Assembly: GCA_964450885.1 (NCBI GenBank)
Contig: CAYVFE010000001.1
Location: 246,572 to 310,571 of the forward strand
Origin: an uncultured Gammaproteobacteria bacterium
GTDB lineage: Bacteria; Patescibacteriota; Microgenomatia; Levybacterales; GWA1-39-11
Direction of reading: 5' to 3'
Length of the DNA stretch: 64,000 nt
Made by a program: the position numbers and the translations under genes. Every line of letters starts with the position of its first letter. The first letter of the stretch is position 1. A model generated the notes under the pieces. The model was given only the letters and a program-made list of their open reading frames with translations. It had not been told where the DNA came from and did not search any database. Below, in pieces: positions 8,129-11,096 of this stretch.

Positions 8129-9313
8129 ATGGCAAGAGTTAAGATATCAGAGTTCAGGGCAAAAAACATTCTATATAAATCACTAAATAGAGATTATTCA
8201 GGAATAGAAGTTGATTCGCAAAAGGATCTGGATCAGCAAGTTTCGAATCTAGATTCCAGCAAGAAATATGTTTTAAAAGTAGACCAAGGGGTAAAGCAGA
8301 GAAATAAAAAAGGGCTAGTTGTGCTTAATATAGGCAAGGAGAATGTAGTAGATAAAATAAAAGAATTATCCCAAAAAGGATATACGCAGTTTTTACTCGA
8401 AGAATTTTTAGAGCATGATAGTGACACCGAAAAATATCTTGCGATAGAAAGGATTCGTGAAGGAAAAAAAATATATTACTCGACTTCTGGAGGAGTTGAT
8501 ATAGAGGAAAATAAAGATAGAGTTAAAAGTCTCACGATAGAAAACTACGATCAGATAGGAGAAGTATCAAAAGAGCTAGGAATGAATATAGAGGTTTTTG
8601 ATGGGATACTAAATGTCTTTGATGATAATTATTTTTCCTTTCTCGAGATAAATCCATTAGTTGTTAAAGATGGAGATTGCTATTTTCTAGATGCTGCTGT
8701 GCAAGTTGATAGTGCTGCAGAGTTTTTTATAAATGGGGGATGGGGGGCTGACGACTTTCGTGAGAGTCTTTCACGCGATAAGACGAAGGAGGAAAGAGAG
8801 ATAGAAAGACTTAGAGAGAAAAGTCCTGCATCTTTTAGCTACGAAATACTAAATCCAAATGGGTCGATATTTCTACTCTTATCTGGAGGTGGAGCATCGC
8901 TCGTTACTGCTGACGAGATCTATCAGCAGGGAAAGGGAGAAGAGATGGCAAATTATGGAGAGTATAGTGGAAATCCAAACACTCAGGAGACTTATATTTA
9001 TACAAAAAATTTACTTGCTACTCTACTCCATTCTAATTCATCTAGAAAAGCCATAATAATTTCGGGAGGCGTTGCGAATTTTACCGATATAAGAAGTACA
9101 TTCAAAGGGCTTATAAGGGCTATGTCAGAGAGCGCGCAAAAACTGCGCGAAAACAAAGTTAAGGTTTTTGTTAGGCGGGGGGGGCCTTTTCAGGAAGAAG
9201 GACTCAGGATCATGGGGGAATTTTTAGAAAAAGAAGAACTATTAGGAGTAGTTAGTGGGCCTGATATGATCCTTACAGACATCGTAAAACCTGCAATCGA
9301 ATACGTATCTTAA
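8129..9313 (+). CDS. aclB: ATP-citrate lyase beta subunit (ATP-grasp, succinyl-CoA-synthetase-beta-like)
   Basis: 394 aa, matching the known AclB size. ATP-grasp SCS-beta-like motifs (KVDQGVKQRNKKGLV, INPLVV..DG....DAAVQVDSAA). Immediately followed, 1 nt later, by the aclA-like gene. Confidence 0.75.
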   Translation: MARVKISEFRAKNILYKSLNRDYSGIEVDSQKDLDQQVSNLDSSKKYVLKVDQGVKQRNKKGLVVLNIGKENVVDKIKELSQKGYTQFLLEEFLEHDSDTEKYLAIERIREGKKIYYSTSGGVDIEENKDRVKSLTIENYDQIGEVSKELGMNIEVFDGILNVFDDNYFSFLEINPLVVKDGDCYFLDAAVQVDSAAEFFINGGWGADDFRESLSRDKTKEEREIERLREKSPASFSYEILNPNGSIFLLLSGGGASLVTADEIYQQGKGEEMANYGEYSGNPNTQETYIYTKNLLATLLHSNSSRKAIIISGGVANFTDIRSTFKGLIRAMSESAQKLRENKVKVFVRRGGPFQEEGLRIMGEFLEKEELLGVVSGPDMILTDIVKPAIEYVS

Positions 9314-9314
9314 T

Positions 9315-11096
9315 ATGAATATCGAAAAGTTAAAAAATATAGAAGCAAAAATAATCGTTATCGGAAATCATCCTGCGATCATACAGTCTATTTTGGATTT
9401 TGATAATATTTCTGGCAAAAAATTCCCAAGCATCGTAGGAATAATTGCTACCGGCAGAAATTATCAAAGATTTTTTTATGGTAAAAAGGAAATCTTGATT
9501 CCGATTTTTAGTTCTGTAGAAAGGTTGCCAGGCAGTGTAAAAGAAAATGTAAATGTGTTTGTAAACGTTAGCTCCGGAAGAAGGGTTTTACAGTCATCGA
9601 TAGAGGCGATAGACAATCTACCGAATTTGGTTATCGGAACAATTTTTGCAGAAAACGTTCCCGAAAAACATGCGATAGATTTAGGCGAATTCGCGAAGAT
9701 AAAAAATATAGTTCTTATCGGTCCTGCTAGCGTGGGAATGGTTTTGCCGGAAGTATTTAAATTAGGTGCGATAGGAGGAGTAAATCTACCACAAATCGAA
9801 ACCTCGGGGATTTTAAATAAGGGTGGGATTGCAGTTCTTTCTGCATCTGGCGGGATGGTAAACGAAATAATAAATATAGTCGCTCAAAGTCATAACAGCA
9901 TCTCCTTTGCACTTTCATTTGGAGGCGATAGATTCCCATTGTTAGAACCTGTTGACGCCTTACTTGCTGCAGAACATGATGAACAAACCAAAGCTATAGT
10001 ATATTATGGAGAGCTTGGTGGTGAAGACGAATACAAGATCGCAGAACTTTTGAAATCCGGTGAGTTTTCTAAAAAGGTTATTTGTTATGTAGCTGGAAGC
10101 GTTTCGGATCTTTTTGACACTCCCCCACAATTCGGTCATGCGAAAGCTATGGCAGGGAGCAAAGAAGAAAGCGCAACAGCAAAAAGAAAAGCGCTTCGTG
10201 ATGCTGGGGCAGTCGTGCCGGATACTTTTTCGGAGTTTGTCGGAGCTATAAATTCGTTGGAAGACTATGGAAGTAGTAGAACTCATGATAAAATAGAAAA
10301 TATGGATGACAGACGCCACGCTCTTATCGCATCAACCATCTCAAAGGACGAAGATGGAGATGTTAAAGTTTTGGGAGAAGATTTGATAAGCTTTGCAAAG
10401 ACAAATTCGTTTGCAAAAATCGCCAGCTCCCTTTTTCTAGGGAAGAAAATAAGCTCAAGTGACACGGAAGAACTCGTCGATTTTATTCTAAAAGTAAGCG
10501 TTGATCATGGGCCATATGTTTCAGGTGCACTAAATACTATAGTGTCAGCTCGCGCTGGTAAAGACCTGGTTTCATCACTCTCATCAGGACTTCTTACCAT
10601 AGGCCCGAGATTCGGTGGAGCCTTGAATCAGGCTGCGGATAACTGGTTTGAAGGGGTACGTAGCGGGAAAGATGCGCACGATTTTGTTGAGGAATTTGCG
10701 CAAAAGAAAGAATATATCCAGGGAATCGGACATAAAAAATATAGGGTAGACATGCCCGACCCTAGAGTAGCAGAGTTAAAGCACTTCGTAGATAGACTCG
10801 ATAGTAAAAGATTCACAAATTTTGCTCTGGAGGTTGAAAAAATAACGACAGAAAAGAAAGGTAATCTTATTTTAAATGTCGATGGCATGATAGCGGCTGT
10901 GCTTCTGGATTATCTGTCAGAGAAAGAAGGATATAGCGATGACGAGTTAAGAAAATTGATCGATGCAGAATTTTTTAATGCACTATTTGTTCTCTCTAGA
11001 AGCGTGGGATTTATCGCACATTTTCTGGACCAAAAGAGGCTTGATGAAGGACTTCTTCGACTAAGCGAGGAAGATGTGGCTGATGCAAATATATAA
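9315..11096 (+). CDS. aclA: ATP-citrate lyase alpha subunit (CoA-binding + phospho-His ligase + citryl-CoA lyase domain)
   Basis: 593 aa. SCS-alpha-like phosphohistidine segment [10 protein letters not shown]. C-terminal citrate-synthase-like domain with [15 protein letters not shown] and [21 protein letters not shown]...[12 protein letters not shown], which closely matches the eukaryotic/Chlorobium ACL C-terminus. Confidence 0.8.
   Translation: [593 protein letters not shown]

Follow-up and report, generated by a model that had tools for sequence, protein, structure and literature searches.

Domain, structure and residue comparisons confirmed the predicted identity of two adjacent genes, aclB and aclA, as a complete two-subunit ATP-citrate lyase (EC 2.3.3.8, below ACL) of a CPR genome, and the encoded enzyme is apparently functional, with an intact active site. 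We propose that aclBA most likely serves acetyl-CoA supply and not carbon fixation. The genes lie in a window of 64,000 nucleotides, the whole stretch of DNA that was analysed, and both ORFs are present there with the positions and lengths that had been read from the sequence alone. The features referred to below are:

5164..7281, + strand: fusA (EF-G), first gene of the co-directional string with aclBA; 88-93% identity to the EF-G ORFs of syntenic Levybacteria loci
7314..8120, + strand: Cof-type HAD phosphatase gene (Pfam Hydrolase_3, 169.8 bits)
8129..9313, + strand: aclB (ATP-citrate lyase beta), 394 aa; ATP-grasp residues 5-205, citrate-binding residues 216-391
8966-8971, + strand: AclB S280-G281 codons (human S308-G309)
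9077..9085, + strand: AclB N317-F318-T319 codons, citrate-binding loop (human N346-F347-T348)
9176-9178, + strand: AclB R350 codon (human R379)
9315..11096, + strand: aclA (ATP-citrate lyase alpha), whole ORF, 593 aa
9315..10259, + strand: aclA N-terminal part, residues 1-315; CoA-binding and CoA-ligase (succinyl-CoA-synthetase-alpha-like) domains
10137..10139, + strand: AclA His275 codon, predicted catalytic phosphohistidine (human His760), within a ten-residue motif
10320..11096, + strand: aclA C-terminal citryl-CoA-lyase / citrate-synthase-homology module, residues ~336-593
11074..12048, + strand: murB (UDP-N-acetylenolpyruvoylglucosamine reductase; Pfam MurB_C 89.7 bits, FAD_binding_4 32.3 bits)

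Results

Domain architecture and similarity to known enzymes

AclB matched the Pfam families PF24948 (ACL ATP-grasp; 116.7 bits, cutoff 83) and PF16114 (Citrate_bind; 182.4 bits, cutoff 26.8). In AclA, PF00549 (Ligase_CoA; 46.5 bits) and Succ_CoA_lig (37.6 bits) were found together with PF00285 (Citrate_synt; 79.2 bits), the latter covering residues 359-582. A search of the PDB returned human ACLY with E-values of 1.8e-109 for AclA and 3e-63 for AclB; against the solved ACL structures AclA scored 348-370 bits, and AclB scored 215-217 bits against the human and Methanosaeta (Methanothrix) concilii enzymes. Residues 11-315 of AclA align to residues 497-800 of human ACLY (183 bits) and residues 374-588 to 877-1091 (179 bits). 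The sequence-only reading, which had proposed a two-subunit ACL in a CPR genome, was thus correct, as judged from the Pfam domains, the PDB matches and the fused lyase module.

The closest of the known systems, human ACLY (PDB 6HXH, 6UUZ; 370 + 217 bits) and the M. concilii ACL (PDB 6HXI / 6ZNW; 348 + 215 bits), have the same domains in the same order and are ~36-40% identical to the window enzyme. The M. concilii enzyme also shares the split into beta and alpha subunits, whereas human ACLY is a single fused polypeptide containing a regulatory linker, a segment missing from the window enzyme. The N-terminal region of the human protein is furthermore ~30 residues longer than AclB, in which there are deletions in the ATP-grasp domain. 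Chlorobium limicola AclB/AclA (PDB 6HXJ) has the same aclB-aclA organisation, architecture and chemistry and similar lengths (398 + ~610 aa versus 394 + 593 aa), but is clearly more distant, with 237 bits for AclA and 147 bits for AclB.

The pair could instead be SucCD, separate citryl-CoA synthetase and citryl-CoA lyase (CCS and CCL), or some other acyl-CoA synthetase whose substrate is an acid other than citrate. SucC and SucD belong to the same superfamily, with an ATP-grasp beta subunit and a phosphohistidine-bearing alpha subunit, and some databases name relatives of the window proteins "succinyl-CoA synthetase alpha subunit" or "citrate/2-methylcitrate synthase". No ACL-specific model came up in the NCBIfam search; its matches were to SucCD, CCL and citrate synthase (CS) models, all below cutoff. 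SucC and SucD models ranked highest among these, yet their scores were 3-5 fold under the cutoffs (SucC model TIGR01016 on AclB, 68.5 versus 375.55 bits; SucD model NF004230 on AclA, 107 versus 336 bits), and the CCL models reached at most 79.4 bits against cutoffs of at least 193. The ACL-specific Pfam domains, in contrast, are strong, and the solved ACL structures score 4-8 fold above those of succinyl-CoA synthetase (SCS) or CCS/CCL; PDB matches to SCS gave 26-83 bits, the value of 26 being that of SCS beta against AclB. SucC/SucD also lack the citrate-binding-domain signature and the citrate-synthase-like C-terminal module, and their alpha subunit has ~290 aa compared to 593 aa here. With SucCD models far below cutoff and the Citrate_synt module present, the window pair is the reverse of the true SucCD without a citrate-synthase-like C-terminus that had been considered as the alternative. 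The Hydrogenobacter thermophilus enzymes CCS (PDB 6HXQ) and CCL (PDB 6HXP) have homologous domains and the same overall chemistry, from citrate via citryl-CoA to acetyl-CoA and oxaloacetate. They are, however, separate enzymes (CCL with ~260 aa) and match only weakly (77 + 57 bits to the CCS subunits, 58 bits to CCL), whereas the window lyase module is fused to alpha, the feature by which ACL is told apart from CCS plus CCL. Together with the conserved citrate-binding residues described below, these comparisons make a misidentification highly improbable and, at the level of sequence, effectively refute it.

Conservation of active-site and substrate-site residues

The phosphohistidine motif that had been claimed for AclA is present, and its ten residues align with the corresponding ten of human ACLY; a further segment of 13 residues also aligns with the human protein. 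The claimed near-identity to the eukaryotic ACLY C-terminus was borne out, with 19/21 positions matching a 21-residue human stretch. Among 132 CPR-family homologues of AclA, extending down to ~45% identity, His275 and the glycine preceding it are invariant, as are E113 (human E599) and H398, H473, D523, R562 and R582 (human H900, H975, D1026, R1065 and R1085). The sole exception among the ACLY residues compared is K474, which corresponds to human R976 and is K in 99 and R in 33 of the 132 sequences. R976 is a CoA-contacting residue in the human enzyme, and F347 of human ACLY is discussed in the same study (PMC10115795).

For AclB, residues were mapped by alignment to human ACLY residues 52-415. 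The ATP-grasp residues K50, K56, R58, E101, N175 and D188 are kept in 10/10 CPR AclB proteins. In the citrate site, N317, F318 and R350 are invariant in this set (n=10), T319 is found in nine of the ten with one S, and G281 is likewise conserved in the window protein and the CPR AclB set. In the ACLY crystal structures, the equivalents of N317-F318-T319, R350 and S280-G281 bind citrate.

Genomic context of aclBA

The genes aclB and aclA are adjacent and co-oriented, with a spacer of 1 nt, and form part of a compact string, fusA-HAD-aclB-aclA-murB, in which gaps of 32, 8 and 1 nt are followed by an overlap. This overlap between the end of aclA and the start of murB measures 23 nt, or 14 nt with a murB start at 11083, the gene call taken from locus L012. 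EF-G Pfam domains were called on the syntenic fusA of L015. The string lies between rpoC-rpsL-rpsG and a probable tuf, an arrangement kept in Levybacteria loci; the ~4 kb preceding the window start carry PPIase, DUF2130, rpsG, rpsL and rpoC. Scans of the window found 20 promoters and 6 terminators, no excess over shuffled sequence (22.3 and 5.9, respectively), so that the operon is inferred from spacing alone. An Rfam scan of the window yielded one tRNA-Pro only, with no riboswitch or leader near aclBA.

Synteny, together with an identity of 78-90% to a MAG of Levyibacteriota, marks the window as Levybacteria-type. The GC content of aclBA (0.37-0.40) is close to the window mean of 0.396, and GC3 resembles that of the adjoining genes. 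Given this host-like composition, the compact string and the conserved placement, aclBA is native to the host genome. Metabolic oddities in MAGs are often due to contamination, and in one archaeal locus (L021) aclB is apparently fragmented and was called as 93 aa, so one could suspect a decaying relic, a binning or assembly contaminant or a recent horizontal acquisition without a role in the CPR cell. Against this, the contig that carries aclBA also bears fusA, ribosomal-protein genes and recA and is syntenic with several Levybacteria MAGs, the catalytic residues are invariant in the 132 homologues, and the CPR sequences form a monophyletic clade with a bootstrap of 100. Neither frameshifts nor lost catalytic residues nor atypical codon usage were found in aclBA, and we consider such an origin exceedingly unlikely. 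The more specific suggestion that the genes are a relic of citryl-CoA synthetase/lyase chemistry finds no support either: the enzyme belongs to the fused ACL type, its active site is intact, and it scores 348-370 bits against ACL versus 58-77 bits against CCS/CCL.

Relatives of the window enzyme

In NJ trees, the enzymes of CPR bacteria (Levy-, Woese- and Dojkabacteria, Saccharimonadales) form their own clade with a bootstrap of 100. This clade is nearer to DPANN and eukaryote-type ACL than to the Chlorobium type, and the CPR sequences stand apart from the eukaryote-containing clade. Support at the deeper nodes was 68% for CPR with a second Saccharibacteria group, 57% with DPANN added and 41-62% for the eukaryote clade, values too weak for relationships beyond the core CPR clade to be interpreted. 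In all nine related loci that cover both genes, aclB and aclA are adjacent and in the same order. The HAD gene occupies the equivalent position in L004 and L007 (44% identity), where L015 has an unrelated gene of 407 aa, and murB is found downstream of aclA in L001-L004, L006, L007, L011 and L015. The link between murB and aclA is indirect and could reflect inherited synteny.

An ACL in CPR had been called unexpected. Its presence in a CPR genome stands, but the unexpectedness was overstated, as the pair is widespread in several CPR classes, forms a clade and is mentioned in the literature: aclAB is enriched in Saccharimonadia (PMC12577380), and CPR/DPANN homologues are misannotated as SCS or CS (bioRxiv 10.1101/2022.10.25.513756). 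Since these two papers already mention CPR ACL in passing, the novelty is modest. A literature search combining Levybacteria and citrate lyase found nothing, and neither Jaffe et al. 2020 nor a 2025 Saccharimonadia study mentions citrate or ACL.

Gene neighbourhoods of aclBA in related loci

Several relatives carry genes of acetyl-CoA or CoA metabolism next to aclBA. In L005, a PPAT/dephospho-CoA kinase fusion followed by tdh and kbl lies directly upstream, and in the DPANN locus L020, kbl (465.7 bits, cutoff 460) and tdh (462.6 bits, cutoff 458.35) lie directly downstream. In L017, where aclBA is part of a glycan cluster, the genes directly upstream are a DegT/GFO fusion and one for a hexapeptide sugar acetyltransferase; two GNAT genes take this position in L009, and in L006 Acyl_transf_3 is encoded two genes upstream. 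Acetyltransferase genes are common, and some of these adjacencies may be due to chance. Nonetheless, neighbours in independent CPR/DPANN lineages repeatedly belong to the acetyl-CoA/CoA node, which would support a role in acetyl-CoA metabolism. Five synteny classes, L008, L013/L014, L018, L019 and L023, had no informative neighbour.

A class-I/II aminotransferase in L005 and L020 was considered as an aspartate aminotransferase using oxaloacetate and rejected, as NCBIfam identifies it as a Kbl-type glycine C-acetyltransferase paired with Tdh; a direct linkage from oxaloacetate to aspartate was dropped for this reason. The idea that aclBA, kbl and tdh had recently moved as one block between DPANN and CPR was likewise rejected, given identities of 36% (AclA) and 49% (Kbl) between L005 and L020 and a different gene order and orientation in the two loci. 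Separately, aclA of L009 has purA as a neighbour, and L020 carries argH and OTCase, weak hints at most.

ACL is a standard marker of the reductive TCA (rTCA) cycle, and marker-gene pipelines take aclAB as evidence for rTCA autotrophy (PMC6662431, PMC12930757), so that aclBA might be read as a sign of CO2 fixation. Aconitase and two isocitrate-dehydrogenase-family (Iso_dh) genes do adjoin aclBA in L022, a more distant relative, and a 2-oxoacid:ferredoxin oxidoreductase gene is located nearby in L021. However, no TCA genes lie beside aclBA in any of the CPR-clade loci examined, and the earlier statement that the window has no other TCA genes holds, for the rTCA cycle as well, among the ~42 proteins scanned individually with Pfam, which lie outside the ribosomal-protein block at ~32-48 kb. 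CPR genomes are also described as being without a TCA cycle (PMC12592800), and the window AclA is just 36% identical to that of the Chlorobiaceae representative P0189, which is of the rTCA type (237-240 bits). The C. limicola enzyme works in a complete rTCA cycle, whereas no such genes were seen near CPR aclBA. On the window proteins scanned and the CPR-clade neighbourhoods, a role in autotrophy is very unlikely.

Discussion

We favour, with somewhat better than even confidence, the view that aclBA encodes a functional heteromeric ACL that cleaves acquired citrate and thereby supplies acetyl-CoA, along with oxaloacetate. The same role, the conversion of external citrate into acetyl-CoA and oxaloacetate, had been suggested from the sequence alone, and it agrees with the gene neighbourhoods of the relatives. 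By homology, citrate that the cell acquires, be it from a host or from its environment, would bind to the citrate-binding domain of AclB and MgATP to its ATP-grasp domain. His275 of AclA would then be phosphorylated and hand the phosphate to citrate, giving citryl-phosphate, on which attack by CoA would produce citryl-CoA, to be split in turn, yielding acetyl-CoA plus oxaloacetate. The C-terminal module of AclA, with H398, H473 and D523, might act as the catalyst of cleavage or as an essential allosteric/tetramerisation core; which of the two roles the module plays in human ACLY is still disputed. Acetyl-CoA could be used for acetylations, for example the N/O-acetylation of cell-envelope sugars, and for UDP-GlcNAc/MurNAc synthesis, while oxaloacetate would arise as a C4 by-product. 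A citrate transporter was found neither among the window proteins scanned nor in any related locus. The proposed role would resemble that of the nucleocytosolic ACLY of eukaryotes, which supplies acetyl-CoA outside the TCA cycle.

The enzyme might also work backwards, synthesising citrate and forming ATP (acetyl-CoA + oxaloacetate + ADP + Pi -> citrate + CoA + ATP), providing substrate-level phosphorylation, with acetyl-CoA coming from fermentation or from threonine breakdown by Tdh/Kbl. CPR bacteria are generally fermentative and ATP-poor (PMC12592800), the cleavage step of ACLY is reversible (PMC10115795), the acetyl-CoA-producing tdh-kbl genes adjoin aclBA in L005 and L020, and Desulfobacter postgatei offers a precedent (Moller et al. 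1987), according to the passage of PMC8085960 that cites it. The D. postgatei enzyme, however, sits in a full oxidative cycle, whereas genes of this kind are not found beside the CPR copies. Reverse running would also require oxaloacetate in stoichiometric amounts, and no source of it was seen; the neighbours in L017, L009 and L006 consume acetyl-CoA, which fits a supplier better. The reaction is near equilibrium and its direction is not fixed by the sequence; as the ATP-forming reaction is uphill by +9 +/- 1 kJ/mol at 1 mM (PMC8085960), cleavage is the favoured direction. We therefore regard reverse running as unlikely.

More tentatively, CPR and DPANN, two unrelated radiations of ultra-small episymbionts, might share an old, dedicated ACL lineage as their principal route to acetyl-CoA, with citrate leaked or exported by the host carrying the acetyl units. 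We consider this a possibility with the chances rather against it. If true, it would represent a between-cell prokaryotic counterpart of the mitochondrion-to-cytosol citrate shuttle, the presence of ACL would signal one particular kind of dependence on a host, and the CPR/DPANN clade could be relevant to the origin of eukaryote-type ACLY.

As an enzyme, ACL is ordinary and well understood; its assignment in CPR usefully refines what was known but is no discovery. Scoring aclAB as an rTCA marker and misnaming the genes as SCS or CS can each yield wrong metabolic reconstructions of CPR/DPANN MAGs. Descriptions of CPR bacteria have them without a TCA cycle and without most biosynthesis, and the source of acetyl-CoA for wall sugars and acetylations is rarely addressed. 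A conserved, intact ACL encoded amid core translation genes, with links in relatives to Tdh/Kbl, CoA synthesis and acetyltransferases, leads to the testable hypothesis that citrate is an acquired acetyl donor in these organisms.

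Identity of the aclB and aclA products

The sequence-only reading had taken two adjacent genes for a two-subunit ATP-citrate lyase (ACL), and its positions for both open reading frames, which are separated by a spacer of 1 nt, proved exact:

8129-9313, + strand, aclB, coding for the 394-aa beta subunit AclB
9315-11096, + strand, aclA, coding for the 593-aa alpha subunit AclA

The motifs quoted in that reading are present and pair up with the matching segments of human ACLY, the fused eukaryotic enzyme, in PDB alignments, the long AclA motif being the same as in ACLY at 19 of 21 positions. 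In Pfam, AclB matches two ACL-specific domains, the ATP-grasp PF24948 at 116.7 bits and the citrate-binding PF16114 at 182.4 bits, as against only 17.3 bits, under the cutoff, for the generic ATP-grasp_2 domain of the succinyl-CoA synthetase (SCS) type. In AclA, Ligase_CoA/Succ_CoA_lig domains precede the C-terminal half of a citrate synthase fold (PF00285, residues 359-582, 79.2 bits). No ACL-specific NCBIfam model fired on either protein; SucC (68.5 bits, cutoff 375.55) and SucD (107 bits, cutoff 336) ranked top, both under cutoff, and none of the citryl-CoA-lyase models exceeded 79 bits, where their cutoffs start at 193. When compared with all PDB sequences, AclA scored 370 bits with human ACLY, 348 with the Methanosaeta concilii ACL and 237 with Chlorobium limicola AclA, versus 83 for SCS alpha, 77 for the small subunit of citryl-CoA synthetase (CCS) and 58 for citryl-CoA lyase (CCL). 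The corresponding values for AclB were 217 (human), 215 (M. concilii) and 147 (C. limicola AclB), versus 57 for the CCS large subunit and 26 for SCS beta. The ACL-specific Pfam domains and the highest PDB scores, which fall to solved ACLs, show that the ACL call was correct. Taken together, the Pfam domains, the NCBIfam scores under cutoff and the PDB ranking thus clearly place the pair outside sucCD, with a citrate-synthase-like domain present.

Active-site residues

Characterised ACLY residues, with human numbering taken from the PDB alignments, were mapped onto 132 full-length AclA relatives. E113 (human E599), G274-H275 (G759-H760, the phosphohistidine), H398 (H900), H473 (H975), D523 (D1026), R562 (R1065) and R582 (R1085) are invariant in all 132, and human R976 is replaced by lysine in the window AclA, as in 99 of the relatives, the other 33 having arginine. 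AclB, both in the window and in nine relatives from the CPR (Patescibacteria), keeps K50, K56, R58, E101, N175 and D188 in its ATP-grasp domain as well as S280-G281, N317-F318-T319 and R349-R350 of the citrate loop. The roles of E599, H760, H900, R976, R1065, D1026 and F347 in ACLY have been treated previously (PMC10115795), and whether the citrate-synthase-homology module acts catalytically or allosterically is still debated (PMC10115795). The key residues are invariant down to approximately 45% identity, which speaks for an active enzyme maintained by purifying selection, and we regard a functional ACL as nearly certain. The domain and residue data together exclude the possibility that the genes were misidentified and really encode SCS or CCS/CCL.

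Genomic setting

The string fusA-HAD-aclB-aclA-murB runs in one direction and is tightly packed, with gaps of 32, 8 and 1 nt followed by an overlap of 14-23 nt. A consensus promoter and terminator scan of the window gave counts equal to those in shuffled sequence, and co-transcription of the string is therefore inferred from spacing. The genes directly outside the window start are rpsG, rpsL and rpoC, and 3' of the string follow a probable tuf and a ribosomal-protein cluster; aclBA thus lies within the conserved chromosomal region of translation genes. The GC content of the acl genes (0.37 and 0.40; GC3 approximately 0.30-0.32) is like that of their neighbours, the window mean being 0.396.

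Using organism names as given in the records of the metagenome-assembled genomes (MAGs), the nearest named relative is a locus (L007) of a Candidatus Levyibacteriota MAG (Microgenomates group of Patescibacteria), with AclA 78%, AclB 74% and EF-G 90% identical and the same gene order across approximately 20 kb. Further syntenic loci come from Levybacteria MAGs or from co-assembly MAGs titled 'uncultured Gammaproteobacteria'. Seven loci carrying this title (L001-L005, L010, L011) show Levybacteria-type synteny and an EF-G 88-93% identical to that of the window; evidently, the label on those MAGs is either a placeholder or erroneous. Contamination, misbinning, a relic or a recent transfer can be dismissed as the origin of aclBA, as the evidence from domains, residues, composition and synteny all speaks against it.

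Other genes in the window

Several further features were recorded, among them a sharp GC island at 24-26 kb (0.545 versus the window mean):

19779-20834, GH18 chitinase-like gene, adjoining the gene for the 998-aa protein
20880-23876, + strand, 998-aa protein with a glucose/sorbosone-dehydrogenase beta-propeller, PKD domains and three CBM60 xylan-binding modules
23985-26675, - strand, 896-aa GT2/cellulose-synthase-like glycosyltransferase with a GH26-like C-terminal region, coinciding with the GC island
27194-29065, - strand, LexA-like S24 peptidase gene beside an ImpB/DinB-family translesion polymerase
29826-30797, - strand, gene for a class-A-like member of the beta-lactamase family (PF13354, 156 bits), here in a CPR genome
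52036-58493, - strand, cluster of FAD-linked oxidases, a split transketolase and a glycerate kinase
61550-64000, + strand, reading frame of at least 817 aa, open at the window end, with an N-terminal Walker-A-like motif GPGTGKT

The 896-aa glycosyltransferase gene may have been acquired horizontally, and the 998-aa protein and the GH18 product look like secreted carbohydrate-scavenging machinery. The LexA-like and ImpB/DinB genes form an SOS-type cassette within a reduced genome. In the 52036-58493 cluster, the FAD-linked oxidases are tandem paralogues of 550 and 557 aa, GlcD- or D-lactate-dehydrogenase-like, the transketolase is split into 55371-56360 and a 286-aa frame at 56353-57213, presumably its other half, and the glycerate kinase consists of DUF4147 and MOFRL. 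The last frame reads like a UvrD/PcrA/AddA-type helicase.

Gene neighbourhoods of related loci

As the sequence-only reading had noted, no other TCA gene is found among the approximately 42 window proteins scanned, and neighbourhoods were therefore compared across independent lineages. In the Levybacteria loci, murB follows aclA. In the CPR locus L005 (AclA 60% identical to that of the window), a fusion protein gene, an L-threonine 3-dehydrogenase gene (tdh) and a Kbl-type glycine C-acetyltransferase gene (kbl) lie, in this order, immediately 5' of aclBA:

L005 5198-6247, + strand, single reading frame fusing an archaeal-type phosphopantetheine adenylyltransferase to a DUF359/GTP-dependent dephospho-CoA-kinase-like part

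The adenylyltransferase part scores 150.6 bits with NF001985 (cutoff 104) and the kinase-like part 78.6 bits, under cutoff; on this CPR-type contig, the last two steps of CoA synthesis would reside in one protein. The DPANN archaeal locus L020 also carries a kbl and a tdh, here directly 3' of the acl genes (kbl 465.7 bits, cutoff 460; tdh 462.6 bits, cutoff 458.35). A recent co-transfer of acl with kbl/tdh between these two loci was considered and dropped, because the blocks are deeply diverged (AclA 36%, Kbl 49% identical) and differently arranged.

In another locus (L017), aclBA sits in a glycan-biosynthesis cluster: a DegT-aminotransferase/GFO-oxidoreductase fusion and a hexapeptide-repeat sugar acetyltransferase lie directly upstream of it, and an epimerase/dehydratase and glycosyltransferases follow. 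Two GNAT acetyltransferase genes precede aclB in L009, and an Acyl_transf_3 gene lies two genes upstream in L006; in five other synteny classes the neighbours were uninformative. A TCA-linked arrangement, with aconitase and two isocitrate-dehydrogenase-family genes adjoining aclBA, was seen in the more distant L022, outside the CPR clade:

L022 1-8797, HMGL-like gene, Iso_dh, aconitase, Iso_dh, then aclB and aclA

The archaeal locus L021 (383-6104) has a 2-oxoacid:ferredoxin oxidoreductase nearby; its aclB was called as a 93-aa fragment only, which may reflect a frameshift or assembly error. What the neighbourhoods share across the CPR and DPANN members of the family is a link to the acetyl-CoA/CoA node and not to the TCA cycle, though part of this signal may be chance, since acetyltransferase genes are common.

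Distribution and phylogeny

A word-indexed search returned 2312 proteins at E <= 1e-20, the best 120 of which are 60-100% identical and, where named, come from Levybacteria or Saccharimonadales; an exhaustive search of 50%-identity representatives gave 149 clusters at E <= 1e-30. In a distance-based neighbour-joining tree (Kimura distances, 58 sequences, 577 columns, 100 bootstraps), the window sequence falls into a clade with Levybacteria, Woesebacteria (L008), Saccharimonadales (L009) and Dojkabacteria (P0127) at 100% support. Support drops to 68% where a second group containing Saccharibacteria attaches, and to 57% at the junction with a DPANN archaeon (Norongarragalinales, P0133). Eukaryotic ACLY, represented by human and fungal sequences, clusters separately and with weak support alongside unnamed prokaryotic sequences of both the two-subunit and the fused form, and the Chlorobiaceae enzyme is distant from the window clade. 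The robust elements of this simple tree are only the core CPR clade and its split from Chlorobi-type ACL.

Proposed physiological role

We propose that the enzyme would cleave citrate to acetyl-CoA, with oxaloacetate as the C4 product, and that the acetyl-CoA would feed acetylation reactions, notably of envelope sugars, a role functionally analogous to that of eukaryotic cytosolic ACLY. The acetyl-CoA/CoA neighbours and the ATP-forming reverse reaction, which is uphill by about 9 kJ/mol at 1 mM (PMC8085960), point to a citrate-cleaving supplier. We lean modestly towards this supply role, and a functional ACL acting as acetyl-CoA supplier is, taken jointly, probable. A rival reading, in which the enzyme runs in reverse for substrate-level phosphorylation, can point to Desulfobacter postgatei as a precedent (Moller et al. 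1987, as cited in PMC8085960) and would suit the Tdh/Kbl neighbours, but it is thermodynamically unfavourable, requires stoichiometric oxaloacetate and leaves the acetyltransferase neighbours unexplained, and we consider it unlikely. The reductive TCA (rTCA) cycle, which marker-gene pipelines would infer (PMC12930757, PMC6662431), is without any supporting gene among the approximately 42 window proteins scanned or beside aclBA in the core CPR clade loci, and is highly improbable.

Relation to previous work

Earlier work touches on ACL in CPR in passing: aclAB is among the functions enriched in Candidatus Saccharimonadia MAGs in a 2025 groundwater study (PMC12577380), and in a 2022 preprint on TCA-enzyme evolution, CPR/DPANN sequences labelled SCS or CS cluster with enzymes that cleave citrate (10.1101/2022.10.25.513756). 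That literature does not analyse what ACL does in CPR; our literature search found no paper linking Levybacteria with citrate lyase, and the CPR metabolism literature checked does not discuss citrate. The Levybacteria ACL is a further member of a known enzyme family, and the finding is real and was correctly interpreted.

Eight close AclA homologues (P0033, P0040, P0082, P0089, P0091, P0094, P0104, P0109) are misnamed or hypothetical in their sources, appearing as 'citrate/2-methylcitrate synthase', 'succinyl-CoA synthetase alpha subunit' or 'hypothetical protein'. In metabolic surveys of CPR, such names could cause gltA or sucD to be called in error. A gltA has been attributed to CPR (PMC11608272), and one might speculate that a misnamed AclA was the cause. 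The present analysis adds caution on misannotation and on rTCA marker calls, together with evidence that the CPR ACL is an old, intact, clade-specific lineage linked to acetyl-CoA metabolism and not to carbon fixation.
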